Source of the DNA: a virus
Lineage: Duplodnaviria; Heunggongvirae; Uroviricota; Caudoviricetes
IMG/VR virus record: IMGVR_UViG_2541047680_000004
Reading direction: 5' to 3' (one strand)
Length of the DNA stretch: 64,000 nucleotides
Below, in pieces: positions 474-63,784 of the stretch. Under the pieces are notes generated by a model. That model had not been told where the DNA came from, did no database searches, and saw only the letters and a list, made by a program, of their open reading frames with translations. A program made the position numbers and the translations under genes. Each line of letters begins with the position of its first letter. Positions within the stretch are counted from its first letter, which is position 1.

Positions 474-719
474 TCAGAGGGTGCTGACGTATGCAGCCAG
501 TTCTGTGTATCCGCCAATCGGCTGGCCTTCGATCAGCACCTGGGGGATAGTCTCTACCGGTTTACCAACAATTTCACTTAGTTTTTCCTTGTCGATACCG
601 GCAGTGGTGATGTCGATGTACTCATAATCACCGTAGCCATGTCCCTTTAGTTGCTTCGCTAGCTCGACCGCACGTTTGCAGTATGAGCAGTTATCTCGTC
701 CGTAGATAGTGATCGTCAT
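474..719 (-). CDS. glutaredoxin-like protein
   Basis: MTITIYGRDNCSYCKRA... with CxxC redox motif and glutaredoxin-like length; track ORF 474..797 trimmed to the internal Met at 719. Confidence 0.65.
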   Translation of the reverse strand: MTITIYGRDNCSYCKRAVELAKQLKGHGYGDYEYIDITTAGIDKEKLSEIVGKPVETIPQVLIEGQPIGGYTELAAYVSTL

Positions 720-893
720 TGTTACCTCATAGAATTGATATGCAACTTTACTCACAAAGAAGATAGGTATGTGCATACTTATCTTTGCAGTCTGCATTAT
801 AAAGCTATTAAAGCCTCGATCAATCTATTAATTAAGGCATTGTTTGGTTAACATTACCCTAATATTTTATAGTTAGTAGAGTGAAATACATAC

Positions 894-2156
894 ATGCCTT
901 TTTTAATTTTCATTATTATACTACTGCTCACCGTGATTTTTTGGGATTGGGTTGTTTTAAATGGTCAAATTGTTGGAACATTGGCTACAGCATTTGCTTT
1001 TATAGCAACAGCATGGAATGCCTACGAAGCGAGAAAAAGTGCAAAAGCAGCTTTTTCAGCCCTTCAATTAACAACAGAATCATTGTTCGAAATGCGAAAG
1101 AGTGCATTTAAACAATGGTTTGATTCCTTATTAAATCAACATGATGAGCTATGTCTTCTTGCAAAACAAATTATCGATAAACGCAAAATTAATTTAAACA
1201 GCGATGAGTTACATAGACTATATTACCCATTGGTAAAACAGCATGAGGTAATACAGTATGTGAAGCATATTATTAATATTTTTGAGTATGTGGATAGTTC
1301 ATTTTATATTGATGGGGAATGTCTAAAGGAAAAAAGAGCGTATGTGTCACAATTAATTTTCAAAATCCCACCTCAGATGAAGTTGATCATTGCTATCTTT
1401 GGATTAAAGATCGATTATTGTGAACATATTAATTCGGGAAAACTGTGTTGTTTATTAAATAAATATGATTTTTTCAATGATGAAATATTTTTTGATGATG
1501 CTTATTCAGATATGCCTTATCTGGATGCATTCATAAACCTTAGATTCAACAAAATATTCAAATCTCGAATGATAAATTATTTTGATAATATCATTAAAAG
1601 TTATTATGTTCCATCGGACGTTAAAAGGGACTGGATGTTTCGAGACCCAAAGCTCGTACCGTCGGTTCTTATGAATTATAAAACTCCTTGTTCTCCTATA
1701 ATTAATGATTACTTTGAGAAGTTGCCTTTACATGTAAGAAACTACTTTGAGGAACTACTTAAAACCGCGAATGATAGAGTTACTCATTTTGACGTTTACA
1801 TCCCACGCCTTATTGGTTGTTCAATCGTGCAACATTACGAAGATGTGCCTTCCGAAAAAAACAGGTTAAATGACAGGAATGATGTAATAGCTATGGCTGA
1901 AGATTACATCGAGAAAAGAAAATCTAATCAACTAGATTACATACTTGAAGATATATACTTCAAGAGTGACGAAGATATAATCCCAGGCCACCATTTGATT
2001 GTGGCATTTGATGACTATGAATTTAAATTATCACTCATTAAGATAAATGAGAATAAAGATAGCGATAATCTTTTAAATCGAATTTATACTGAATCCAGTA
2101 GCATGGTTAAAGAATATAAGCGCGAAATATTAAAACTGGGCGACTATGTAAAGTAA
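894..2156 (+). CDS. hypothetical membrane protein (two N-terminal TM helices plus about 360-aa soluble domain), low-GC orphan
   Basis: 420-aa ORF, strongly AT-rich relative to surroundings, opposite strand to neighbours, own terminator downstream; N-terminus FLIFIIILLLTVIFWDWVV / IVGTLATAFAFIATAW hydrophobic. Confidence 0.6.
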   Translation: MPFLIFIIILLLTVIFWDWVVLNGQIVGTLATAFAFIATAWNAYEARKSAKAAFSALQLTTESLFEMRKSAFKQWFDSLLNQHDELCLLAKQIIDKRKINLNSDELHRLYYPLVKQHEVIQYVKHIINIFEYVDSSFYIDGECLKEKRAYVSQLIFKIPPQMKLIIAIFGLKIDYCEHINSGKLCCLLNKYDFFNDEIFFDDAYSDMPYLDAFINLRFNKIFKSRMINYFDNIIKSYYVPSDVKRDWMFRDPKLVPSVLMNYKTPCSPIINDYFEKLPLHVRNYFEELLKTANDRVTHFDVYIPRLIGCSIVQHYEDVPSEKNRLNDRNDVIAMAEDYIEKRKSNQLDYILEDIYFKSDEDIIPGHHLIVAFDDYEFKLSLIKINENKDSDNLLNRIYTESSSMVKEYKREILKLGDYVK

Positions 2157-2348: not shown

Positions 2349-2435
2349 TGGCGGAGAGTAATGGAATCGAACCATCATCGTTTGCACAATGGGACGGTTT
2401 TCAAGACCGCTTGAGCACCATGCTCCCTACTCTCC
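2349..2435 (-). tRNA. tRNA-Ser (anticodon UGA), class II
   Basis: Hand-folded: acceptor GGAGAGT/ACTCTCC, anticodon loop CTTGAAA, long variable arm, T-loop GGTTCGATTCC, discriminator G + encoded CCA; 87 nt. Confidence 0.75.
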
Positions 2436-2755
2436 AGCTATTGTGATGGTCGGTGCTGAACTCCGACACAGGGTTGTAGCAAGCCCCGCAAAGCGCGCAC
2501 TACTGTAGTTGCGGCACATCAGCCTGTGCATTCATCACAATGGTAAGATCACTACCTTTCGACCAGTCATTGTGCACATGAACGACGATTAACCGTAATG
2601 ATATTATCGTTGTGTTGTGAAGCCAGATGCTTATCTTCTGGTTGCTTCAAAGAGCTGCACTTCCTCACAACGGTAAGAGCACTGGTCTGACTCTATCGAT
2701 TTACGGCCTTGTGGGTCAGTATCGCCGATTCGCCCAATGCTCTTACCTGTTGTGT

Positions 2756-2831
2756 TGGTGCCGGTTAACGGACTTGAACCGCTGGCCATTCGCTTACAAA
2801 ACGACTGCTCTACCAACTGAGCTAAACCGGC
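2756..2831 (-). tRNA. tRNA-Thr (anticodon UGU)
   Basis: Acceptor GCCGGTT/AACCGGC, D-arm GCTCAGTTGGTAGAGC, anticodon loop TTTGTAA, T-loop GGTTCAAGTCC, encoded CCA; one mismatch at base of anticodon stem. Confidence 0.75.
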
Positions 2832-2835
2832 AATT

Positions 2836-2922
2836 TGGTGGGGAGTGATGGAGTCGAACCACCCGAGTCGCCATGACAGTAGATTTACAGTCTACACCGC
2901 TACCTCTACGGACTAACTCCCC
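2836..2922 (-). tRNA. tRNA-Tyr (anticodon GUA), class II
   Basis: Acceptor GGGGAGT/ACTCCCC, anticodon stem GTAGA/TCTAC with loop CTGTAAA, long variable arm, T-loop GGTTCGACTCC, encoded CCA; sequence differs from the E. coli host tRNA-Tyr. Confidence 0.8.
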
Positions 2923-2927
2923 TAAAT

Positions 2928-3002
2928 TGGCGATGGTGGGTGGATTCGAACCACCGACCAGTTGGTTAACAGCCAACTGCTCTACCGCTGAGCTACACCA
3001 TC
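2928..3002 (-). tRNA. tRNA-Asn (anticodon GUU)
   Basis: Perfect cloverleaf: acceptor GATGGTG/CACCATC, D-arm GCTCAGCGGTAGAGC, anticodon stem GTTGG/CCAAC with loop CTGTTAA, T-arm GGTGGTTCGAATCCACC, encoded CCA; differs from host tRNA-Asn. Confidence 0.85.
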
Positions 3003-4432: not shown

Positions 4433-4591
4433 CCTTAATCTCCTTCACGGTGTTGGTTATTTCTACAATGCGATAAATGCGACCTCGTCTTTCTATAACA
4501 CCGTTTTTAATGTAGTCATTAATGCAACTGGACATCACCACAATACCGATGAAAAAACCAACTGCTAAAAATGCAATCATCCAGCCGAGCA

Positions 4592-5914
4592 TCATTCTTT
4601 ATCTCCGATTCGATCTTCTGTATCGCGTAAGCAACGCGGCCATTTCAGTCGTGGGTGGCGTAAGCTGCCATCCGGCGTTTTCTCGTGACAATGAACCTCG
4701 ACAATACGACCACGGTACTTCTCTTTGTTGTTCCAGATCTCGTCCAGATATTTATGCTTAATGCCGCTCGCACGAACAATCACACCGTTTTCAAGGCGAA
4801 TAACAATTTTTCCAAGCGTGTTGGCAAAACCAGAGTCCGGGTCGCCCGGCTCAAAGTCGATAATTTCACCATCTTCTGAATCTTCGTCTTTTAACTTCCA
4901 CCAGCTGCGGGTACGTTTAAACTCGTAAACAGAGTTCGGATCTTTGCCCATCTCCCCTTCTTCGTTATCGTCCAGGCGTTTCATGAAGCGTTCGATGAAA
5001 TCTTCGTGGCTATGGATGATATAGAACGGATGCAGGTGAATGTCTTGTGCGTAGCCTTCACTGCGATCGTTTTTAAACAACGCCACCAGCATAGCCAGGC
5101 GCTCTTTCAGCTTCATACCTGTCTTTGCATACTCTTTGGATTTAGCCTGTGCCCGCCATTCCGGTAGGAAGAAGTCGAAAACATGATAAATAGCGCCAAT
5201 TGCCTGCACGTTCTTTTTGCGCAATGCAGATACGGACTGGTTAAATGAACCGGCTGTTCCTTCACCATCGAAGAAGATGTGTTTGTGGCCTGAAAGTTTG
5301 CCTAATTCGAGCATTGCTGGCTTTAGGTGATCGAGAGACGTGATTGGATTACCAGTACGAGAAAGGAAGTTAACCTCTTCCTCGTCAACAATAACCTCGC
5401 AAATTACTCGCAAACCATCGAGCTTAAGACTGCCAATCATCGGCCATTTTGCTTTAGGATTTGGCTTGAAGGGGTATTTGTCGCCTTTTTCTTTATACGG
5501 TGACGCCAGCTGCACCTCGAATTTCGGAATGGGATTTTCAAAAACCTTGTTGCATAGGCTAATCCCAACACCTGCTTTCGGGTCTTTTAAGAGGAAACGA
5601 CGGAACACGTCCTGCCCATCGGCGCACATTGACGCCACGATAGACTCAACAGCTGCTATTGCTGCGTTCCCCGTTAGCTCGCGAGAGGCCAGCTTATTCA
5701 GTATATCAATGGCTTTTTCGTCACTTGGGACGGACTCACTAAGCGGCTCTGCCACTTTGTATTTCTTTACCCCAAAACGGATGAAAGGGTTGAGCATCAA
5801 TGAAACCATGCTTTGTTCAAAGTCATCCATGTTGGCCAATGCCTCTTTTTTTGCATTGGTTCCCATAGCTTTCATTTCGTCCAGCTTATGCTTAAGTGCG
5901 ATCAACTTTTTCAT
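4592..5914 (-). CDS. ATP-dependent DNA ligase
   Basis: Adenylation motif I KxDG(x)R present as SLKLDGLRV; 440 aa, size and layout typical of phage ATP-dependent ligases. Confidence 0.8.
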   Translation of the reverse strand: MKKLIALKHKLDEMKAMGTNAKKEALANMDDFEQSMVSLMLNPFIRFGVKKYKVAEPLSESVPSDEKAIDILNKLASRELTGNAAIAAVESIVASMCADGQDVFRRFLLKDPKAGVGISLCNKVFENPIPKFEVQLASPYKEKGDKYPFKPNPKAKWPMIGSLKLDGLRVICEVIVDEEEVNFLSRTGNPITSLDHLKPAMLELGKLSGHKHIFFDGEGTAGSFNQSVSALRKKNVQAIGAIYHVFDFFLPEWRAQAKSKEYAKTGMKLKERLAMLVALFKNDRSEGYAQDIHLHPFYIIHSHEDFIERFMKRLDDNEEGEMGKDPNSVYEFKRTRSWWKLKDEDSEDGEIIDFEPGDPDSGFANTLGKIVIRLENGVIVRASGIKHKYLDEIWNNKEKYRGRIVEVHCHEKTPDGSLRHPRLKWPRCLRDTEDRIGDKE

Positions 5915-6381: not shown

Positions 6382-6448
6382 AATTACCGCCAGAAATAAT
6401 CTTGTGCTTACCTATCATTATTTGCGTAAAAAACGACACACAGAGAGC

Positions 6449-12530: not shown

Positions 12531-12637
12531 CTGGTAGGTAGTTACTTACTTATCACGATGGACGGATGATAGCGACTGGTGTCAGTTTTTGGAAGTGAAA
12601 ACGGAAGGGAGTTGTTCTGGTGGTGTCTTTTAAAAGA

Positions 12638-12683
12638 CCTGCTTCCGTATATATTTAATAAGTTACTTATTATTTATATACAG
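12638..12683. repeat. copy 1 of a 43-bp AT-rich repeat (second copy 45937..45984)
   Basis: cctgcttccgtatatatttaataagttacttattatttatata(c)ag, near-identical in both copies, each about 110 bp upstream of an operon start. Confidence 0.7.
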
Positions 12684-12795
12684 AAACAGGCTCCTAATGG
12701 ATACCAAGAACAACATAATTTGACTCCAACTCCAGATGCTATGTCATTGACAGATTTATCAAGGGAGATCATGTTAGAATTAGTGTTTTAGCCTC

Positions 12796-13869
12796 GTGGA
12801 TATTGTCACCATGCGCATGAATAGACTTCCAGGATATGGCCTTCCCGAACTGGCTTTTTGGCCTCAGCCTAAATATGAACGGAATAAATGGTCGATGTTC
12901 TGTCTGAAACTCCGTAATGATGGAACCCTTGCTTGGTATCGGCGATATGTTGATCGTGGTATGCCAAACCACGCTGTTGATGACGACTACGATAACTATC
13001 CTGAAGCAAGAAAAGCGGCATTAGAGCTGAATAAAAACGTGAGCTTTGACATTGAAAAACTTCCTCTATCTATGTTTCAAAAGAAGTCATTGCGTTTGAA
13101 AGTTGACAAAGCACTCAAAGCCAAATCACGTCTCATGGATGAAGAGTATATAATGCTCAACGAAGCAATTAAGGCACACGCCAACGATCCGCGAGTGACA
13201 TTAAATGAGTTAATAATTAACCCAGATTACGAAACTTTGCGTCAACCCCTTTTTGACGTGCTAAGCGAGATGCCTTACTTACATTTTGTTTTTCTTCCCA
13301 AATTCCAAGTTTCACTTCAACTCGTTGCTCCTAACACTTGGGAATGTTCATATAACAACAAAGCTAAGACAGCGAAGATCTGCTACCAAGAACGCATAGC
13401 CAGAGGTTTTGGTTTATCAGGTGCTGCACATTGGGGAAAAACAAAAGCGACTATTCGCTCAATGCTTCTGCCGCGTGCTAACCGGTTACTGCAACTCGCC
13501 AGCGTAAAAAGAATGCTGGATGAAGCTCTCAGGAATGGGCAAAAGGTACTGGTTGTTGGCAACTTTGTTTTCTGGTTTGAGGACAAAAATCAGGTAGGTT
13601 GGAGTGTTAAAGTTGCTAGCGAAAGCGAAACCACCTCAAGAGGCAATACGCTCTGGAAAGAAGGAACTATCATTTCAAAAAATCACGGTCGAATTGTCGT
13701 GCTGCCGTATACAAAAGAAAACGGTAAACATGTAAAAGGTTATACCAAGAATGCCCCTAACGACGGCAATGCAATTCCTAGACATAAGGATGAGTATGTT
13801 GAGTTGCCCTTTGAAATTTTGGATGGTGACTTGATGTTCAGTCTGTTCGGTGAGCTTAACTACGAATAG
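12796..13869 (+). CDS. hypothetical protein (plus-strand orphan)
   Basis: 357-aa ORF with bidirectional hairpin terminator at 13,880-13,920. Confidence 0.45.
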   Translation: MDIVTMRMNRLPGYGLPELAFWPQPKYERNKWSMFCLKLRNDGTLAWYRRYVDRGMPNHAVDDDYDNYPEARKAALELNKNVSFDIEKLPLSMFQKKSLRLKVDKALKAKSRLMDEEYIMLNEAIKAHANDPRVTLNELIINPDYETLRQPLFDVLSEMPYLHFVFLPKFQVSLQLVAPNTWECSYNNKAKTAKICYQERIARGFGLSGAAHWGKTKATIRSMLLPRANRLLQLASVKRMLDEALRNGQKVLVVGNFVFWFEDKNQVGWSVKVASESETTSRGNTLWKEGTIISKNHGRIVVLPYTKENGKHVKGYTKNAPNDGNAIPRHKDEYVELPFEILDGDLMFSLFGELNYE

Positions 13870-13929
13870 CTTTCATAGAACGAAATATTTCTAAGGCTGT
13901 CCAATGCAGACCAGCCTTAGAGATTTATA

Positions 13930-14289
13930 TCAACCTTTCTTCATTAACTCGCGTTTAATTTCATCGGTACGCATCGTGACATCGGCAGCAGTGATCGCCT
14001 CGTTCAGCTTCACGATGTCCTCGATTTCCTGCGGTGTCTTCTCCGCAAGATGGAAAATAGCAGCACGAATCACATCAGAGCGGGTGAATTTCTCGAAGCG
14101 AGGGATGAACTTCATCATCTCCAGCAGTTCGAAGTATTCGTCTTCCAGTGACATTGTGCGGCTTTTAATTTTCTCTTTGCCACGAGTCGGGCGTCCCTGT
14201 GGTCTGACTGGTTGGCGCAAAGGAGTTGTGTTCTTAGCCGGTGCATCAGGCTCTTTGCGCTTTGCTAGGTCACCCATTTTCATGGACAT
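13930..14289 (-). CDS. putative ribbon-helix-helix centromere-binding protein (ParG-like)
   Basis: Small protein translationally coupled to parA; predicted beta-strand/helix/helix segment SRTMSLEDEYFELLEMM...RSDVIRAAIFHLAEK. Confidence 0.4.
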   Translation of the reverse strand: MSMKMGDLAKRKEPDAPAKNTTPLRQPVRPQGRPTRGKEKIKSRTMSLEDEYFELLEMMKFIPRFEKFTRSDVIRAAIFHLAEKTPQEIEDIVKLNEAITAADVTMRTDEIKRELMKKG

Positions 14290-14957
14290 TATTCTTCTTC
14301 CTCCAGACTCAACAGATAATCTACAAATTCTTCAAACTCGGCTTCCGCCTTTTTGTCGCGCTCGCTACCGGTCATTTCAAAGATAGAACGACCAGACTCT
14401 TCCGCATCATCATAGACGTTGCGGTTATATAGATTGACTGGCGCAGACTCGATGCCAAACGTCTCAACAATCTCTTTAGCCGCCAGAATGCGAGACACTT
14501 GTGATGGCAAAGCCGGGCACTGGTTCATGACCGCGCGGACCTTCACTTTATCGTTTACATTACGAACATTGTCGATAATAGGATCGATGTCACGCAGAGA
14601 TTTCAAATCACGACGCTTAGGACGAAGCGGGATAATGATAACGTCGGCCATCAGCATCGCTTGTCGCTGAATTTCGGAGTCAAAGCCACCAGCATCTACC
14701 ACTACATACTCAGCTCTACCCTGAAGCGATTTTAGGTGCTTAATGATGTCATCCTGAACGTATGCAAAAGGAATCAGCTCAAGGTCTTCGTTCTGTCGAC
14801 GGTCTTCACACCAGCTCGTTGTCGTGCGCTGAATATCTATATCGGTGATATAAACCTTCTTCTTCTTTTTGACTTTCAGGCAAACGGCAATTTGCTGGGC
14901 TACGGTGGATTTGCCTGGCCCGCCCTTTGTGCCGCCAACCACAAAGATCTTGGTCAT
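14289..14957 (-). CDS. parA: ParA-family partition ATPase (short, type Ib-like)
   Basis: Deviant Walker A GGTKGGPGKST, Walker B-like VVVDAGG; 222 aa. Confidence 0.75.
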   Translation of the reverse strand: MTKIFVVGGTKGGPGKSTVAQQIAVCLKVKKKKKVYITDIDIQRTTTSWCEDRRQNEDLELIPFAYVQDDIIKHLKSLQGRAEYVVVDAGGFDSEIQRQAMLMADVIIIPLRPKRRDLKSLRDIDPIIDNVRNVNDKVKVRAVMNQCPALPSQVSRILAAKEIVETFGIESAPVNLYNRNVYDDAEESGRSIFEMTGSERDKKAEAEFEEFVDYLLSLEEEE

Positions 14958-14992
14958 TGGAGAGTTCCCTTTGCGTATATAATTATCGTCTG

Positions 14993-15005
14993 AAACAACT
15001 TGTTT
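14993..15005. promoter_or_regulatory. palindromic operator-like site AAACA-N3-TGTTT upstream of parA
   Basis: aaacaacttgttt 36 bp upstream of parA start. Confidence 0.5.
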
Positions 15006-15105
15006 TCTTATATGTGATATAGCCTAAATGCCTACGGCTGTGGTGTAAAGGTTTAATGATAGGTACATAGGTGGGCTTAATAACAAAAAACCCGCCGTAG
15101 CGGGT

Positions 15106-15879
15106 TTATTGATTCATAGATCGTTTACTCAGAATGTTCACTATATGAGTACAAGCACCTGGGGTGAGATTGATTTTATTAGTCCCCCACTCTTCACGTC
15201 TTCGCATCTGGCCTCCGTCAGACTTACCGATATCCCACGGAATAAAACCACTTACGCCACAGGCATCCTCACCCAATTCCTCTATAAAATTTTCGTTCTT
15301 CGTATCGTAAATTTCGACCAGTCCATGTTTGCGCATACTCACAGCCCAAAGAGTTGCGCCTTTTATCGTCTGTAACGTATCGCAAACCAAGTACTGATAC
15401 TTATCTACGAGATAAAGGTAAGCAAAACTTGCGATGCCTAATCCCATATAATCAGCATGAGTAAAAACCCCTCTAATCTGCTTGGCGCTGACTTTTACTC
15501 CAGATTTATCCTTGATTGGAAACTCGCAGTAGGCCACGCGGAAGACTGTTTGGACTGGCTGCCCCACATGCAACTTGTAGGATTCAATTTCTGCTCCTAT
15601 CTCAAGAGGTGTGTAACCAGCACGTTTGAGTCGCTTAACTTCCTGCTCTTGGTAATCAGGATCACATGACTCAAGACACTCGCCAACAATACAGCGTTCA
15701 TAGGCCGAATCAACAAGCTCGTATTCGGTAAATCGAATTAGATCGAAACCTCGGGAGATAAAATAGAACTCACCGAGAGCGATAATTCTCGTCGCTCTCG
15801 GCATTTCAGACAAGACCTTGCTGTAGTCTTCTATTTCAGGGATTAATCTGTTCGCCTGACCAATTAGAGATGGTGCCAT
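15106..15879 (-). CDS. hypothetical protein
   Basis: 257-aa ORF followed by bidirectional terminator (cccgccgtagcggg). Confidence 0.4.
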   Translation of the reverse strand: MAPSLIGQANRLIPEIEDYSKVLSEMPRATRIIALGEFYFISRGFDLIRFTEYELVDSAYERCIVGECLESCDPDYQEQEVKRLKRAGYTPLEIGAEIESYKLHVGQPVQTVFRVAYCEFPIKDKSGVKVSAKQIRGVFTHADYMGLGIASFAYLYLVDKYQYLVCDTLQTIKGATLWAVSMRKHGLVEIYDTKNENFIEELGEDACGVSGFIPWDIGKSDGGQMRRREEWGTNKINLTPGACTHIVNILSKRSMNQ

Positions 15880-16283
15880 GAAGTATTCTGTGCCGTTGAT
15901 GGTTCCATATCATCGATTTTACAGAATTTCTTCATAAAAGACTCTACAACTTGTTTGATTCGTGAAGAAATATCACGATCTAAACACTTCAAGTCAGGAT
16001 ATTGTTCAGCAACATCTAAAACAAAAGAGGTTCGTTTACCGTTAGCGACAACCTCGGCCAACGGTTTAACCAGTGACGTAGAATTAGAGACCTTTTCGGC
16101 ACGCGCCACATCGCTCTTAAAAGTGACGATGAAGTGCTGGCGGTTAGCTGATTCACGGCACAACATACGTCGCACTTCTACTGCGTCTTCACTGTTGTGA
16201 ATACGCATAGGAAAGCTGTCGATAACCGCAGTATTGGTGCGGATCGTCTGCATAGAACGCGTATTGTCATGATAATTTAGCAT
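15864..16283 (-). CDS. hypothetical protein
   Basis: 139-aa ORF. Confidence 0.4.
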   Translation of the reverse strand: MLNYHDNTRSMQTIRTNTAVIDSFPMRIHNSEDAVEVRRMLCRESANRQHFIVTFKSDVARAEKVSNSTSLVKPLAEVVANGKRTSFVLDVAEQYPDLKCLDRDISSRIKQVVESFMKKFCKIDDMEPSTAQNTSWHHL

Positions 16284-17944: not shown

Positions 17945-18013
17945 GAAAAGTCAAATCGGGATGGCGGATTTATATCACATTTCACCCTTTTGTTGTAGGT
18001 GTGTGCTTACCTA

Positions 18014-18244
18014 TCATTCAGCATTGCAACGGACTGATGAGAAAGCACCTACTCCAACCCATCGCCAGTTATAGATGCTACCCGCTTTGTATAAGGTATA
18101 GTCGTTCACTTTTTTAACAGCATATATGGGTATGACTGTCTCCTGTCCACCAATGATAGCCTCACCATAACATATAGGTGTCGGCAATTTCTGGCAGCCA
18201 GTAAGAGAGAGAACAACAGCTATTGTTAGAAATAATCTTTTCAT
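18014..18244 (-). CDS. small lipoprotein, Cor/Llp-like superinfection-exclusion candidate
   Basis: 76 aa, lipobox LSLTG-C, located between the tail fiber genes and the lysis cassette as cor/llp are in T1/phi80/T5-type phages. Confidence 0.5.
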   Translation of the reverse strand: MKRLFLTIAVVLSLTGCQKLPTPICYGEAIIGGQETVIPIYAVKKVNDYTLYKAGSIYNWRWVGVGAFSSVRCNAE

Positions 18245-46291: not shown

Positions 46292-47182
46292 TTATGCCGG
46301 TAAAGCAATTTCTAACGGTTTATCCAAAGGTTGTTTGTCGAATGCCAGCAGTGGCAGCGTGTCAGGCAGTCGACGGCCAAAGTCAGGGTTTCGGTACACA
46401 CCATACAACGGAGACGTAAAGCTCAGGTTGTGAATGTCCTTGAGCAGCTTCACAATGCTGGCCTCGTCCACCAGACTGTCGGCAATGTCCTGAATCGTCG
46501 TGCCACGATTCCGCCCAGCTTTTGCCAGGGAACTGTTCTTGTGGTAGTCCGCCACCAGATCACGCAGTGCACGGCGACGACGAGACTCGCTCATTGCGAA
46601 CAATTCTTTGACGATCGCCTCGTTATCACCCGGGTCGGAACGGAAATGGCGCTGGAATACACGCAGTGCACTTTCATAGCTCTTCGGTCGCTCAGGGCGG
46701 ATGAACTTAAACCCTGCTTTCATGGCGAAGGGATTGTATTTGCTCATCGAGGACTGGATCTCAATGATTGGCCGGTCATGCATCCTGCTAACCAGGTTAA
46801 TCATTCGATAAGAGACGCCTACGCCACGATACTGAGTATCCACAACTGAGCGACTGATCACCGCAAAGTTGTTATTCACGTACCGACCCCAGTACTGGTT
46901 AGCCACGGTGGTATTAGTGGTTGGTTTCAACTTAGGAAACATGCGGTGGCGAGGTGCCAGCAGTAGTTTCGGGTAAGCCATAACCACGACGCCCACCAGA
47001 CGGTCATCAAGTTCGCAGCGATAGTAAGTTGGCGCGAAAGGTTTGCCGTCTGTTTTGTAGTGAAGCGACTTAAGAGCGTGCCAGTCCTCTACAGTTCCCT
47101 TTGTGACAGTCATTCGCTCCAGAAAGTCCAGATGACGCGGAAACTCTTCAGGGCGGTAGCGTTTAATGATGATGTCCGTCAT
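46292..47182 (-). CDS. GNAT-fold acetyltransferase-like protein
   Basis: CoA-binding-type motif VVDTQYRGVGVSYRMINLV (R-G-x-G-x-S) in a 296-aa protein. Confidence 0.4.
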   Translation of the reverse strand: MTDIIIKRYRPEEFPRHLDFLERMTVTKGTVEDWHALKSLHYKTDGKPFAPTYYRCELDDRLVGVVVMAYPKLLLAPRHRMFPKLKPTTNTTVANQYWGRYVNNNFAVISRSVVDTQYRGVGVSYRMINLVSRMHDRPIIEIQSSMSKYNPFAMKAGFKFIRPERPKSYESALRVFQRHFRSDPGDNEAIVKELFAMSESRRRRALRDLVADYHKNSSLAKAGRNRGTTIQDIADSLVDEASIVKLLKDIHNLSFTSPLYGVYRNPDFGRRLPDTLPLLAFDKQPLDKPLEIALPA

Positions 47183-47844
47183 AAATGAACCTCATCATGA
47201 CTACCATTGTGATATTCCACCTTCACGCGTTCTTTGTAGTGCTTGGTGATCTGCATATCCGGGCGCAGCGCGTTCTTCAGGTCTTCGTGAGTCGTCGCCA
47301 CCATTACCGTCGCACCAACCTTTCGAGCGGCACGCTGGAGGTTAGATGCCACAACCTGAGCGGTTACACGGTCTAGAACAGCACCGAACTCGTCAGCAGC
47401 CCACACTTTAGCGCCTGACTCAATCAGTTTGGCAATCTTGAGACGATATTTCTGACCGTCTGACATTTCAGAAGGCTTGCGAACAAACAGATATGCATCG
47501 TTCAGACCAGCCATAGATAACAACCCAAGCGCATCGCTGGTCGTTTTGCCCAACTGATCGATGACGTTAACCTCATTATCGAAGGTAAAATCATCGATGG
47601 AGGCTACAGACAGCCCTTCATCCTTCATCTGTCGTTGCAACTCGCGCAGCACAACGGATTTGCCGGAACCGGATTGGCCGGTGATGTACACCACATCGCC
47701 CTGCTTCACTTCCAGCTCCAGATTGTCGTAAAGCGTCCACTCTTTTTCGTCCAGGCCAAGCCCGAACGACTCAGCGATTTCCAACGTGCGCGTGGTTTTA
47801 TTTACGCGTGTCTGAAACGATACGTTGATGATGTATTTGCTCAT
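47179..47844 (-). CDS. stand-alone ABC-type ATPase (nucleotide-binding domain only)
   Basis: Walker A GQSGSGKS, signature-like MSDGQKYR, Walker B VWAADEF, H-loop TTHED. Confidence 0.65.
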   Translation of the reverse strand: MSKYIINVSFQTRVNKTTRTLEIAESFGLGLDEKEWTLYDNLELEVKQGDVVYITGQSGSGKSVVLRELQRQMKDEGLSVASIDDFTFDNEVNVIDQLGKTTSDALGLLSMAGLNDAYLFVRKPSEMSDGQKYRLKIAKLIESGAKVWAADEFGAVLDRVTAQVVASNLQRAARKVGATVMVATTHEDLKNALRPDMQITKHYKERVKVEYHNGSHDEVHL

Positions 47845-48542
47845 ACAGCCATCTCCCCGGAAGAGATCTTCTCCGCATATGCCACAAATGCGTCTACCCC
47901 GCTTTCTCCCGTCATTTCTTCCATGTGGGCAAGCAAATCACCAACAACAATGGCAGAGCCAGCAGGAAGCGTTTTAAAGCCCAATACGTCGACAACACGT
48001 ACTTCTTCCGCTGCAACTTCACGACTGATCTCGGTGTGTTCATCCTTCTGTCGTTTAGTTTCTTCGCCAAGATCGATAACTAGCGAGTCGGTGTCCATTT
48101 CTTCTGTCATGCTGCCAACGAGAACATTCAACTCACGCTCTTCAAAGCCGAAAACCTCGATATCGTCCAGAACAAGCGACTCAAGCTCTTTCTGTAGCTT
48201 AATTGCATCGTAATCAATGCTGGCAAGTCGGTTATCTTCAAGGCGCTTCGCACGAACCTCGTCATCACTGAGATCATCGCGAACAATAACCGGTACGCGC
48301 TCAAGTCCAGCAAAAATTGCAGCCTCACGGCGGCCGTGGCCAGTAATAATTACGTCGTTCTTATCGACCGTAATTGGCTGGTCAAATCCGCGCTTTTTAA
48401 TGGCTGCGGCTAGATCTCGGATCTGCTGTTCATCATGCTTTTTGGCATTCATCTCATAGGGAATAAGATCTGCCGGGTCGCGATATACGATTTCAAACTT
48501 TTTGGTCATTACATACGCTCCTTGTAGTAGTCGACCAGCCAC
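47841..48542 (-). CDS. ParB N-terminal domain (ParB/Srx-like) protein
   Basis: ITGHGRREAA motif resembling the ParB GxxRxxA box. Confidence 0.6.
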   Translation of the reverse strand: MAGRLLQGAYVMTKKFEIVYRDPADLIPYEMNAKKHDEQQIRDLAAAIKKRGFDQPITVDKNDVIITGHGRREAAIFAGLERVPVIVRDDLSDDEVRAKRLEDNRLASIDYDAIKLQKELESLVLDDIEVFGFEERELNVLVGSMTEEMDTDSLVIDLGEETKRQKDEHTEISREVAAEEVRVVDVLGFKTLPAGSAIVVGDLLAHMEEMTGESGVDAFVAYAEKISSGEMAV

Positions 48543-49207
48543 ACCAGAGCCTCACCAGCGTTCTCCATTTCATTACCGGTGTTAATAGCCTGCTCTTTGA
48601 TGATGTTTTTTATGGTTTCTGCAACACGATCTGACGCATCGAAAGTTACTTTGAAGCGCATGGTCTGATGTTCCGCCCCCACACGTTCGGTTTTCTCTCG
48701 TTTGTCGGTATCGACAGGCTCATCACTACCACGAGACAACGCCTCCAGTGCTTCAAGGTCGATTGCCGCCTCTTTTGCTAAAACCATCGAGATTTCGTCG
48801 TCATACGGGGCGATTTCAGACAGTTGATAGTCAAGTTCTGACTGAATTTCTTCAATGAAGCGTTGCAATGCGATTTGGTCGTCTTCACCGTATCGCTCGT
48901 TGTCCACCAGTGACATCTGTTTAGCTACGACATCGCTAATTTTGCCCACAGAAAGCACTGGAACCGTTGAAATTCCTTGCTCAATAGCGGCACGCCAGCG
49001 ATGTTCGCCGCCGAGGATTTCAAAAAATCCATCTTCAAGTTCACGAGCCAAAATTGGCTTAAAAAAGCCCAATTTTTCGATAGAACCTTTCAGTTTTTCA
49101 AAATTCTGCGCACCAACCGAATTGGTGTTCCAGGTATTCGGGCGAAGGTTGGCAACATCAACCTGCAAAATCGTGATTTTTACATCCATTTTATTGCTAC
49201 AATCCAC
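48509..49207 (-). CDS. ParB N-terminal domain (ParB/Srx-like) protein
   Basis: ILGGEHRWRAA motif resembling the ParB GxxRxxA box. Confidence 0.6.
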   Translation of the reverse strand: MDCSNKMDVKITILQVDVANLRPNTWNTNSVGAQNFEKLKGSIEKLGFFKPILARELEDGFFEILGGEHRWRAAIEQGISTVPVLSVGKISDVVAKQMSLVDNERYGEDDQIALQRFIEEIQSELDYQLSEIAPYDDEISMVLAKEAAIDLEALEALSRGSDEPVDTDKREKTERVGAEHQTMRFKVTFDASDRVAETIKNIIKEQAINTGNEMENAGEALVWLVDYYKERM

Positions 49208-59382: not shown

Positions 59383-59568
59383 TTAGATGAGATGGTCTAA
59401 TTCATCATCTATCATGGCTTTGACGCTGGAGTCATTCACTCCATATTTATTTATGAGCTGTTTCAGCTCTGGCGAAAACTGAAGGTAGATATCGTGAGCG
59501 TTTTTCACTGTAGGTTCAACGCCACGCATTTCAAGCGCCTTTAGTAGATATGAGTCTTCTTTAAGCAT
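59383..59568 (-). CDS. hypothetical small protein
   Basis: 61-aa ORF. Confidence 0.3.
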   Translation of the reverse strand: MLKEDSYLLKALEMRGVEPTVKNAHDIYLQFSPELKQLINKYGVNDSSVKAMIDDELDHLI

Positions 59569-60065: not shown

Positions 60066-62099
60066 TTACTTAACCTGGTGGCCAGGTTTAGCACCAGCAT
60101 CCGGGCTTAACAGGAAGATATCTTTCCCGCCGGGGCCAGCAGCCATCACCATGCCTTCAGAGATACCGAAGCGCATTTTACGCGGAGCCAGGTTAGCCAC
60201 CATAATTGTGTGACGACCAATCAGTGCCTGTGGGTCTGGATAAGCAGAACGGATGCCTGAGAAGACATTACGCTTTTCACCACCGAGATCCAGCGTCAGG
60301 CGCAGCAGCTTGTCAGAACCTTCAACAAACTCTGCGTTTTCAATCAGCGCCACGCGCAGGTCAACTTTAGCGAAGTCGTCAAAGGTGATGGTTTCCTGAA
60401 TCGGGTCGTCTGCCAGTGGGCCAGTTACCGGTGCGGCTGTGGCTTTCACTTCTTCTTTGGATGCTTCCACCAGTGCTTCCACCTGTTTCATATCGATACG
60501 GTTATACAATGCCTTGAACGGATTCACTTTATGGCCCAGCAGCGGTTGCTGGATACCATCCCAGGTCAGTTCTGTATTCAGGAATGCTTCTGCACGTTCA
60601 GTCAGTTTCGGCAGTACCGGTTTCAAGTAAGTCATCAGCACGCGGAACAGGTTAATGCCCATAGAGCAAATCGCCTGCAGATCGGCATCGCGTCCTTCCT
60701 GCTTCGCCACCACCCACGGAGCCTGTTCATCAACATAGCGGTTAGCCAGGTCAGCCAGTGCCATGATTTCACGGATAGCTTTACCAAATTCGCGGCTTTC
60801 CCATGCTTCGCCAATCACTTCAGCGGCATCAGTAAAGGTTTTGTACAGTTGCGGGTCAGCCAGTTCGCTTGCCAGCACGCCGTCAAAACGCTTGTTGATA
60901 AAGCCTGCATTACGGGAGGCCAGGTTAACCACTTTGTTCACGATATCGGCATTCACGCGCTGAACGAAATCCTCCAGGTTGAGATCGATATCATCAATGC
61001 GCGAAGAGAGTTTCGCAGTGTAGTAGTAACGCAGGCTGTCGGCGTCAAAATGATTCAGCCAGGTGCTGGCTTTAATAAAGGTACCGCGAGACTTAGACAT
61101 CTTCGCGCCGTTCACCGTCACATAGCCATGAACAAACAGGTTGGTCGGCTTGCGGAAGTTGCTGCCTTCCAGCATTGCTGGCCAGAACAGACTGTGGAAG
61201 TAAACAATATCTTTACCGATGAAGTGGTACAGCTCGGCGGTGGAGTCTTTCTTCCAGTATTCATCGAAGCTTACGCTGTCGCCGCGCTTGTCGCACAGAT
61301 TCTTGAAAGAACCCATATAGCCAATCGGCGCATCTAGCCAGACGTAGAAATATTTACCCGGCGCGTTCGGAATTTCAAAACCGAAATACGGCGCGTCGCG
61401 GGAGATATCCCACTGTTGCAGGCCAGATTCAAACCACTCCTGCATTTTATTTGCCACCTGCTCCTGCAACGCACCGCTGCGGGTCCATGCCTGCAACATT
61501 TCGCTGAAAGAGGGCAGATCAAAGAAGAAGTGTTCAGAATCACGCATTACCGGCGTAGCGCCAGAAACCACCGATTTCGGCTCGATCAATTCAGTCGGGC
61601 TGTAGGTCGCGCCGCAGACTTCGCAGTTATCGCCGTATTGATCCGGGGATTTACATTTCGGGCAGGTGCCTTTCACAAAACGATCCGGCAGGAACATGCC
61701 TTTTTCCGGGTCGTACAACTGAGAGATAGTGCGATTTTTAATAAAACCGTTCTCTTTCAGGCGAGTATAGATAAGCTCAGACAACTGACGGTTCTCTTCG
61801 CTGTGCGTCGAGTGATAGTTGTCATAGCTGATGTTAAAGCCTGCGAAATCAGTCTGGTGTTCCTGACTCATTTCGCCAATCATCTGCTCCGGTGTGATAC
61901 CAAGTTGCTGTGCTTTCAGCATGATCGGCGTACCGTGGGCATCGTCGGCACAGATGAAATTAACCTCGTGGCCGCGCATTCGCTGGTAACGAACCCAGAC
62001 ATCAGCCTGGATGTGCTCCAGCATATGGCCGAGGTGGATTGAGCCGTTAGCGTACGGCAGCGCGCACGTCACCAGAATTTTCTTCGCGACTTGGGTCAT
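60066..62099 (-). CDS. metG: methionyl-tRNA synthetase
   Basis: 677-aa product beginning [26 protein letters not shown] (HIGH motif) with KMSKS motif, matching enterobacterial MetG as recalled from memory; track ORF 60066..62228 has a spurious N-terminal extension. Confidence 0.95.
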
Positions 62100-62256
62100 A
62101 GTAGGCATTACTTCTTTGTAGTGAAAAGGGGCTTGATAGTAACAAAATGGCCTTATGTCTGCCATGTGATAACAGCATTTCTCATAAATGATTAAATGTC
62201 GCAGCTGGAGTACACTACAAGGCGACAATTGCGCAAATTAAAATAAAGGAGACGGG

Positions 62257-63357
62257 ATGAGCGAGTCCAAATCGCCGGATGCCCTGAGAGCAATGGTAGC
62301 CGGTACGCTGGCTAATTTTCAGCACCCAACCCTGAAACACAACCTGACTACGCTTAAAGCGTTACACCATGTTGCGTTGATGGATGACACACTGCATGTC
62401 GAACTAATCATGCCTTTCGTGTGGAATAAGCCTTTTGAAGACCTGAAAGAGCAATGTAGTGGTGATCTGCTCCGTATCACTGGCGCAAAGGCTATTGACT
62501 GGAAGCTGTCGTACAACATTGCCACGCTTAAGCGCGTCAAAAACCAACCAGGCATTAATGGTGTTAAGAATATTATCGCCGTAAGCTCAGGCAAGGGCGG
62601 TGTAGGCAAATCGTCCACAGCAGTAAACTTGGCACTGGCTTTGGCTGCTGAAGGTGCGAAAGTTGGTATTTTGGATGCCGATATCTATGGTCCATCAATT
62701 CCAACCATGCTGGGCGCGGAAAACCAACGTCCAACCTCACCGGACGGTACTCACATGGCACCTATCATGTCTCATGGCCTGGCAACCAACTCTATTGGTT
62801 ATCTGGTCACCGACGACAATGCAATGGTGTGGCGTGGACCGATGGCCAGCAAGGCGCTGATGCAGATGTTGCAGGAAACACTGTGGCCTGATCTGGACTA
62901 TCTCGTTCTCGATATGCCGCCGGGCACTGGTGATATTCAATTGACGCTGGCGCAGAACATTCCTGTAACTGGTGCGGTTGTGGTAACTACGCCGCAAGAC
63001 ATCGCGCTGATCGATGCGAAGAAAGGCATTGTGATGTTCGAAAAAGTCGAAGTGCCGGTACTAGGTATCGTCGAAAACATGAGTGTGCATATTTGCAGTA
63101 ACTGCGGTCATCACGAGCCAATTTTTGGCACCGGTGGCGCACAGAAACTGGCCGAGAAATACAACACGCAGTTGTTAGGCCAAATGCCACTTCATATCTC
63201 TCTTCGTGAAGATCTGGATAACGGAACACCAACCGTTATTAGTCGTCCAGATAGCGAATTTACGGCTATTTATCGTGACCTCGCAGATCGCGTTGCTGCC
63301 CAAATGTATTGGCAAGGTGAAGTAATACCTGGCGAAATCGCATTCCGCGCAGTGTGA
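62257..63357 (+). CDS. apbC: Fe-S cluster carrier ATPase Mrp/ApbC
   Basis: Product ...SPDALRAMVAGTLANFQHPTLKHNLTTLKALHHV... with P-loop SGKGGVGKSS and CxxC (CSNCGHH); divergent from metG as in E. coli. Confidence 0.9.
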   Translation: MSESKSPDALRAMVAGTLANFQHPTLKHNLTTLKALHHVALMDDTLHVELIMPFVWNKPFEDLKEQCSGDLLRITGAKAIDWKLSYNIATLKRVKNQPGINGVKNIIAVSSGKGGVGKSSTAVNLALALAAEGAKVGILDADIYGPSIPTMLGAENQRPTSPDGTHMAPIMSHGLATNSIGYLVTDDNAMVWRGPMASKALMQMLQETLWPDLDYLVLDMPPGTGDIQLTLAQNIPVTGAVVVTTPQDIALIDAKKGIVMFEKVEVPVLGIVENMSVHICSNCGHHEPIFGTGGAQKLAEKYNTQLLGQMPLHISLREDLDNGTPTVISRPDSEFTAIYRDLADRVAAQMYWQGEVIPGEIAFRAV

Positions 63358-63394: not shown

Positions 63395-63784
63395 CTACAT
63401 CACAGGACAATCATCAAACTCGCCACTTCTTGCGTCGTTGATAATGTGAGTGATCACACCAAACACGGCATTGCTGCCCGTGCATCCATCATCATCCTTT
63501 GGCAATGCTTCCTTCTTACCAGTTCTTAAATCCTCCAGATGCTGACGTGGATACTTCCGGTATCTTTTTACGCGATATTCCCCATCCAGAGCACATACAA
63601 GAAGAGATCCATCAACAGGAGTCAGTGAGGAATCGACCACCAGCAATGCACCCTGCAATATTCCCTCACGATGATGACTATCAGCCGCCCTCATGAAGTA
63701 GGTCGCTGAAGGATGTCTAATTATCTGCTGATCAAGAGAAATACGGCTCTCAGCATAATCCGCCGCAGGAGAAGGGAAGCCCAT
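63395..63784 (-). CDS. UmuD-prime-like S24 peptidase-family protein (natively lacks the N-terminal arm)
   Basis: Begins MGFPSPAADYAE, matching UmuD from Gly25 onward (GFPSPAADY...HPSATYF); in-frame stop 4 codons upstream of ATG. Confidence 0.7.
   Translation of the reverse strand: MGFPSPAADYAESRISLDQQIIRHPSATYFMRAADSHHREGILQGALLVVDSSLTPVDGSLLVCALDGEYRVKRYRKYPRQHLEDLRTGKKEALPKDDDGCTGSNAVFGVITHIINDARSGEFDDCPVM

Follow-up and report, generated by a model that had tools for sequence, protein, structure and literature searches.

A probable type Ib-like partition operon in an SSU5-type phage-plasmid of Escherichia coli

The two-gene locus and the element that carries it

The stretch analysed here (the window) comprises 64,000 nucleotides of the IMG/VR virus record IMGVR_UViG_2541047680_000004, and by near-identity and gene content it represents an E. 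coli phage-plasmid of the SSU5/pHCM2/pECOH89 type. Between positions 13930 and 15105 it carries parA, a gene for a small partition ATPase, and directly downstream of it a gene for a 119-residue protein, hereafter called the partner (Table 1). The observed two-gene locus is real, far beyond chance. Both open reading frames (ORFs) match PHROG families over their full length, ParA to PHROG 164, 'ParA-like partition protein' (2e-51), and the partner to PHROG 5111, of unknown function (1.5e-79).

The parA stop codon and the ATG of the partner gene have one base in common. Cyrano, SSU5 and two phage-plasmids from Klebsiella show the identical TAATG junction; distant relatives have either an 8-nucleotide overlap of the two genes or a gap of 2–3 nucleotides between them. 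The overlap indicates translational coupling of parA and the partner gene, as an earlier sequence-only reading of this DNA had proposed, and the presence of the identical junction in other phage-plasmids agrees with that proposal. RefSeq places the partner start at the third codon (14283), two codons downstream of 14289. A GGAGG box lies 10 nucleotides before the first ATG and favours the start at 14289; the RefSeq choice leaves the overall picture unaltered. Gene order is preserved over long distances as well. Four distant members of the partner family (26–40% identity) were traced to contigs, where each lies immediately 3' of a gene for a ParA of 221–229 residues, and the order ParA-then-partner is kept in every relative found, down to 26% identity. 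Three of these four loci adjoin tail-fibre genes, and at least one of lysis, DnaB and defence-type genes is nearby, as it is in SSU5-like elements.

Table 1. Positions of the par operon, its candidate regulatory DNA, related sites elsewhere in the window, and segments of the partner protein.
Feature	Position	Strand	Description
parA	14289-14957	minus	222-residue ORF, small Walker-type partition ATPase; start MTKIFVVGGTKGGPGKST
Partner gene	13930-14289	minus	119-residue ORF, putative centromere-binding protein
Stop/start overlap, parA/partner	14287-14291	minus	TAATG; plus strand CATTA
Intrinsic terminator of upstream gene (15106-15879)	15088-15107	minus	8-bp stem with 5 GC pairs, T tract
Hairpin	13887-13924		13-nucleotide arms, 92% complementary, 12-nucleotide loop; between the convergent partner gene and ORF 12796-13869
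Candidate -10 elements of the par promoter	15007-15021	minus	TATATC (15021-15016) or TATAAG (15012-15007), directly upstream of palindrome
Operator-like palindrome copy	14990-15008		AGAAAACAAGTTGTTTCAG in gene orientation, containing the 13-mer AAACAAGTTGTTT (14993-15005); centre ~42 nucleotides upstream of parA ATG
58-nucleotide non-coding block	15009-15066	minus	Candidate par-specific operator or centromere, directly upstream of palindrome
Strong palindrome 13-mers	11757, 14993, 45861, 45886, 54999, 55763, 56666, 57151, 58345, 59918, 59969
Weaker palindrome sites	10342, 15944, 18773, 18875, 52085, 61202
Two tandem ParB_N-only proteins	47841-48542, 48509-49207	minus	232 and 233 residues; PF02195
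N-terminal motif	partner residues 1-11		MGDLAKR; from family alignment
Basic, Pro-rich disordered tail	partner residues 12-44		From charge and AlphaFold2 model
Ribbon-helix-helix-like core	partner residues 44-82		Ribbon SRTMSL, helix 48-59, helix 70-82 (FTRSDVIRAAI)
Two further acidic helices	partner residues 86-118		From AlphaFold2 model

Upstream, the preceding gene ends in an intrinsic terminator, which implies a separate promoter for the par operon. Downstream, the hairpin between the partner gene and the convergent ORF is probably the end of the par transcript. The terminator and the hairpin together delimit a two-gene operon. Because a scan for consensus promoters detected no canonical sigma-70 site ahead of parA, we infer the -10 element, for which there are two candidates (Table 1); their position is equivalent to that of GATAAT/TATTAT hexamers at other promoters that bear the palindrome described below.

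The flanks of the operon (12531–13929 and 15106–16283) are a hotspot of variable cargo when compared with the related loci L001 and L002. A KacT-type toxin-antitoxin pair lies upstream of parA in Cyrano, and differing hypothetical genes occupy the space between the partner gene and dnaB in SSU5 and the Klebsiella elements. At the distant locus L008 the operon is flanked by the defence-type genes ApeA/HEPN and Abi_2 (650–2059, minus strand; 4591–5559, plus strand), and a gene for a 120-residue S24 peptidase is divergent from parA.

The 7 kb around the par locus are 98.7% identical, over their full length, to the E. coli plasmids NZ_CP024271 and NZ_LR882992, and they also match the phage-plasmids Cyrano (pLF82), PhiR41_1, SSU5, pECOH89 and several from Klebsiella. 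In PLSDB the par region matches 721 plasmid records, 688 of which are predicted to be non-mobilizable. In its RefSeq annotation NZ_LR882992 is collinear with the window and has genes for tail, capsid, portal, terminase, lysis, a DnaB-like helicase, primase, a RepB-family initiator and a tyrosine recombinase; this combination of virion, lysis, replication and RepB genes identifies the element as an SSU5/pHCM2/pECOH89-type phage-plasmid. The group is well described as plasmid prophages (PMC7969092, PMC3999498). That the element can be maintained as a low-copy plasmid, a further claim of the sequence-only reading, is in keeping with its membership of this known family of low-copy plasmid prophages, and ~5.5 copies per chromosome have been measured for the related Cyrano (PMC9928086). 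No ParA other than the one at this locus is annotated in NZ_LR882992.

ParA and its 119-residue partner

The deviant Walker A motif of ParA, KGGPGKS with the signature Lys11, occupies residues 11–17, and a Walker B motif, YVVVD, lies at residues 84–88. As Walker A begins at residue 11, the protein is too short at its N-terminus to accommodate a helix-turn-helix (HTH) domain there. Small ParA proteins of ~200–230 residues that lack such a domain have been described as a size class (PMC5393062). Pfam matches of ParA are to AAA_31, MipZ, CbiA and VirC1, all families of the ParA/MinD type. Its best PDB match is ParF of TP228 (3e-10, residues 9–199), and it keeps an aspartate equivalent to ParF Asp111, the role of which is described in PMC7308502. 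The best NCBIfam model is NF041546, ParA_partition (E=2.3e-33, profile positions 6-202/203), which scores 115.5 bits and so falls below its curated equivalog cutoff of 180 bits. By these profile scores ParA is a relative of the ParA_partition/ParF family and not an equivalog. The short ParA with a deviant Walker A motif that had first been noted at this locus is thus a 222-residue protein without an HTH domain, with ParF as its closest solved relative.

The partner is less easily placed. Its family is tiny, with 25 clusters at 90% identity. An exhaustive hidden Markov model search of 1.8 billion representative proteins yielded only 18 members, representatives at 50% identity, and linked no named family to them; searches of PDB sequences with the partner and with the family profile gave chance matches only. 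The partner appears to belong to a distinct, hitherto unnamed family and not to the ParG family. Its orthologues are labelled 'hypothetical' in all records except that of Cyrano, which names a 'RelE/ParE putative toxin'. If that label were correct, the small ORF would encode a toxin of the RelE/ParE type, and ParA would lie beside a toxin-antitoxin remnant instead of forming a two-gene partition cassette. We regard this as scarcely credible and reject the toxin identity. No Pfam or NCBIfam toxin model matched the partner even at permissive thresholds, the structural model consists of a disordered basic tail and four helices and contains no RelE-like sheet, an antitoxin partner is not present, and every record other than Cyrano's says hypothetical.

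The structural model is an AlphaFold2 monomer predicted from a 13-sequence alignment, with a predicted local distance difference test score (pLDDT) of 66. It leaves residues 1–47 disordered and places helices at residues 48–59, 70–82, 86–97 and 101–118, the first two of which coincide with helices 1 and 2 of the ribbon-helix-helix (RHH) fold. In the family alignment, an N-terminal motif shared family-wide, [MF]G[DG]L[AGT]K[KR], gives way to a linker that varies, then to a basic stretch that is conserved (PVRPQGRPTRGK), and then to the core and a helical C-terminus; the core, IKSRTMSLEDEY...FTRSDVIRAAI, is highly conserved, and the C-terminus is less so. The isoelectric point is 11.4 for residues 1–44 and 5.0 for the remainder. 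Since the C-terminal helices are acidic, they would be poor candidates for HTH recognition helices. ParB and ParG proteins of type I systems have disordered N-terminal peptides that dock in the cleft of the ParA dimer, where a basic residue stimulates ATP hydrolysis (PMC5393062, PMC7308502). Judged by its conservation, the MGDLAKR-type motif with its variable linker is the obvious candidate for a ParA-activating peptide in the partner.

Three independent remote comparisons point to the same segment of the partner in the same register (ribbon 44–48, helix 1, helix 2). The NCBIfam family aCcr1, which comprises RHH transcription factors (PMC9976878), matches residues 54–79 with E=2.3e-4, a score of 21 bits that is far below the cutoff of 60. 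Comparison of the partner family profile by hhalign with the N-terminal RHH domain of E. coli NikR gave E=7.9e-4, with an alignment running from RTMSLEDEY through RSDVIRAA, and comparison with a profile of PF01402-annotated proteins gave E=0.01, the inter-helix loop carrying an insertion of 3 residues. As a control, the columns of the target profiles were shuffled 200 times. None of the 200 shuffles reached the score of 23.5 for the NikR profile (null mean 10.1, maximum 18.0), and 3 of 200 reached the score for the PF01402 profile. The NikR query sequence was verified among real PF01402 proteins; both reference profiles are shallow, the homologue searches behind them having given low-diversity sets. 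In the NikR alignment, Ser43, Thr45 and Ser47 of the partner occupy the positions of NikR Arg3, Thr5 and Thr7, which we take to be the residues that read DNA bases, and every family member save one keeps these three residues unchanged. The partner thus probably has an RHH core with a longer inter-helix loop and two extra helices, an assignment that is one of remote sequence-profile similarity.

Palindrome and conserved block upstream of parA

The parA upstream region contains one copy of a palindrome with the core AAACAA-N-TTGTTT and the extended form AGAAAACAAnTTGTTTTCT. The sequence-only reading had described this palindrome as global, and its abundance supports that description: allowing up to 2 mismatches, the window has 26 strand-matches against 3.3 expected, with a maximum of 7 in shuffled sequence. 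Strong sites number 11 in the window, and the whole related plasmid NZ_LR882992 has 18 sites. Read in gene orientation, strong sites lie 8–11 nucleotides (4 at one site) downstream of a -10-like hexamer (GATAAT, TATTAT, TAATTA or TATATC) and mostly 12–60 nucleotides upstream of a minus-strand start codon. This spacing makes the palindrome coincide with the transcription start or follow it closely, as a repressor operator does. Within the window, the genes behind it include parA, the DnaB-helicase/primase operon, a terminase-adjacent operon and small genes of unknown function, and palindromes of NZ_LR882992 that fall outside the window precede nrdB, CobT-related and TerB-family genes. The sites at the parA and dnaB promoters are conserved in Cyrano, SSU5, the Klebsiella elements and the distant relative L003. 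From this distribution the palindrome appears to be a genome-wide promoter-proximal operator and not a par-specific centromere, and its presence at the parA promoter places the par operon in a genome-wide regulon.

We considered whether the partner itself binds these ~18 palindromes, in which case it would be at once centromere-binding protein and global repressor, and the dispersed palindromes would jointly act as the centromere. The palindrome is the sole strongly symmetric element at the parA promoter and sits at the transcription start like an autoregulatory operator, and L003, the partner of which is only 32% identical yet retains the SRTxS ribbon, keeps it at both the parA and the dnaB promoter. 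Dispersed centromere sites that affect late-gene expression are known from N15. No regulator was recognised by Pfam and PHROGs among ten small genes under control of the palindrome, and the partners of type Ib systems normally autoregulate from upstream of parA (PMC7308502). Conservation in other relatives argues the other way. The palindrome is absent upstream of parA in L006, L007 and L008, although the ribbon residues are unchanged in L006 and L008; in L007 (P0036), the partner differs at two of the three ribbon positions predicted to face DNA. In addition, the annotation of the near-identical plasmid has a separate HTH regulator just beyond the window, a plausible candidate for the palindrome binder. 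A 19-bp palindrome with one central base suits HTH dimers equally well. On balance, binding of the palindromes by the partner is putative and, in our estimate, unlikely.

Among the products of the palindrome region is a 61-residue protein (59383–59568, minus strand) with a weak match, below cutoff (E=0.006), to the RecBCD inhibitor gp5.9 of T7. This match hints at anti-defence functions among the small genes controlled by the palindrome.

Directly upstream of the palindrome lies the 58-nucleotide non-coding block, which is nearly invariant across elements from E. coli, Salmonella and Klebsiella. Positions 15001–15040 are 97.5–100% identical among the elements, compared with ~80% in parA; upstream of the block homology ends abruptly, and the equivalent stretch at the dnaB promoter is not conserved. 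The block holds GTAGGC and TTAGGC 8 bp apart as well as inverted CCTAC/CCTAT and, the palindrome and one 11-mer excepted, is unique within the window. A motif from it, GCCGTAGGC, recurs upstream of parA in the distant L008. Phylogenetic footprinting therefore makes the block the best candidate for a par operator or centromere, and the centromere would most likely reside here.

Two other elements of the upstream region were noted. The 11–12-mer TACCTATCATT(A), which includes the -10-like TATCAT, lies within the block at 15054–15065 (minus strand) and recurs at 6409–6420 and 18008–18018 (both plus strand), where each copy is preceded by TGTGCT; ~0.03 occurrences are expected per 11-mer. An omega-like heptad, TATCACA, was dismissed as coincidence, with a single copy upstream of parA and one more inside the parA coding sequence.

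The operon as a partition system

Our preferred interpretation, to which we assign a probability of about 0.75, is that the locus is an active partition operon of the SSU5/pHCM2/pECOH89-type phage-plasmid, built like the type Ib (ParF/ParG) systems. The parA-parG architecture proposed at the outset agrees with a small ParA that lacks an HTH domain and is closest to ParF, and with a partner that is coupled to it and syntenic in every relative found. In such an operon, the short ParA ATPase would bind the nucleoid as an ATP dimer. The co-translated partner would dimerise through its RHH core and bind plasmid DNA by the ribbon and the basic tail, and its N-terminal peptide, MGDLAKR, would contact ParA and stimulate ATP hydrolysis, so that plasmid copies are separated before division and the plasmid is stabilised. 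With its own promoter and one copy of the genome-wide operator, par expression would be tied to the early-gene regulon.

Several results weigh against this interpretation. Pfam finds no relevant domain in the partner at E up to 0.1, or in 13 family members at E up to 10, and no curated model of Pfam or NCBIfam recognises the partner at cutoff, the aCcr1 score included. Fold searches with the monomer model were uninformative. In hhalign comparisons, the family profile showed no similarity to ParG (E=0.56 over 8 columns) or to omega, both taken as unverified sequences. Repeat finding and Tandem Repeats Finder detected no array of iterated centromere repeats near the operon. The literature searched contains no experiment on the par locus and no functional study of SSU5-type partition. 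Finally, two ParB_N-domain proteins are encoded elsewhere on the element. The sequence-only reading, which had called the partner RHH-like and proposed a comparison with ParG and CopG, is supported with these caveats. The core is in register with aCcr1, NikR and PF01402, and with a single unverified CopG sequence in a weak match (E=0.021).

The ParB_N proteins raise the question of whether one or both of them, acting on some parS, are the true partner of ParA, which would make the 119-residue protein a mere regulator or accessory of the operon. Both match PHROG families named 'ParB-like partition protein', 'parB' is taken as an SSU5 marker gene in surveys (bioRxiv 10.1101/2025.09.12.675607), and no centromere was found adjoining parA. 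Their genes, however, are 33 kb away from parA and share an operon with genes for ABC-type ATPases adjoining the terminase/packaging module, and the N-terminal ParB domain is all that was detected in the proteins. A small ParA without an HTH domain is normally partnered by the small protein encoded directly downstream (PMC5393062), and here ParA and the 119-residue protein are coupled and syntenic in all relatives. We therefore consider a distal ParB_N partner improbable and retain the 119-residue protein as the partner of ParA. The ParB_N/ABC-type ATPase-like operon as a whole (47179–49207, minus strand) could serve partition, packaging or anti-defence.

Read as a type Ib-like partition operon, the locus most resembles ParF-ParG-parH of TP228. 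Both have a small ParA (222 residues here, 206 in ParF) with the partner encoded directly downstream, regulatory DNA upstream of parA, and a partner in which a disordered basic N-terminal tail precedes an RHH-like core; the N-terminal peptide of the partner carries a conserved basic residue that could act equivalently to ParG Arg19 (PMC5393062, PMC7308502). Unlike ParG, the partner has 119 instead of 76 residues, two extra acidic C-terminal helices and an inter-helix loop that is 3–5 residues longer, and shows no detectable sequence similarity. An array of tetramer boxes with AT-rich spacers, as in parH, is not evident here, and the par promoter, in contrast to that of TP228, carries an operator common to ~18 other promoters.

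Other systems share single aspects. In delta-omega of pSM19035 and IncC-KorB of RK2, a small ParA is likewise combined with a DNA-binding-type partner, and a short symmetric upstream site recurs at promoters of the replicon. Sites are more numerous here (~18), binding of the recurring site by the partner is putative, and hhalign similarity to omega is absent. KorB is an HTH ParB and no RHH protein. Like this element, the phage-plasmids N15 (linear, with SopAB and dispersed centromeres) and P1 (with dispersed C1 operators) have short sites scattered around the genome, some of them near replication and late genes. SopA/SopB of N15 belongs to type Ia and includes a large HTH ParB, unlike the locus here; the C1 operators of P1 are asymmetric 17-mers, their ligand is the immunity repressor, and par of P1 lies outside C1 control. 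Compared with RHH_1/CopG proteins (PF01402; the NikR N-terminal domain, aCcr1), the partner has ribbon, helix 1 and helix 2 in register and R-S-D/E-x-I-R-x-A at the start of helix 2. It differs in matching below every curated cutoff, in its longer loop, and in its family-specific N-terminal tail and C-terminal helices.

Elsewhere in the window, a cluster of four tRNA genes (2349–3002, minus strand) comprises Ser-TGA, Thr-TGT, Tyr-GTA and Asn-GTT; in the near-identical plasmid only three tRNA genes are annotated, the Tyr gene being missing. The phage-plasmid also encodes a full-length methionine–tRNA ligase (metG, 1018 bits), the iron-sulfur carrier ApbC and a HumD-type UmuD' homologue (60066–62228, minus strand; 62257–63357, plus strand; 63395–63784, minus strand), in a region of raised local GC (0.51). 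Both metG and ApbC resemble captured host housekeeping genes.

In function and architecture the locus resembles the type Ib cassette ParF/ParG of TP228, and such a cassette is ordinary and expected for a low-copy plasmid; parA was already annotated in such elements, and the group is known to be maintained as plasmids. The present analysis adds the identification of the partner, the correction of a toxin mis-annotation of its orthologue in Cyrano, an invariant cis block, and the placement of the par promoter in a genome-wide operator network. If the partner did bind the ~18 palindromes, it would be a master repressor of early, replication and packaging-proximal promoters in widespread clinical phage-plasmids. 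Segregation would then be tied directly to the lysogeny/lysis programme, by a logic like that of omega, KorB and N15 SopB executed by a new protein family, which would be notably more interesting. Clinical E. coli, Salmonella Typhi, Shigella and Klebsiella frequently harbour phage-plasmids of the SSU5/pHCM2/pECOH89 type, and resistance genes such as CTX-M-15 and dfrA51 are found on them. In these elements the partner gene, the 58-nucleotide block and the operator at the par promoter are concrete targets for studies of stability, incompatibility and curing.

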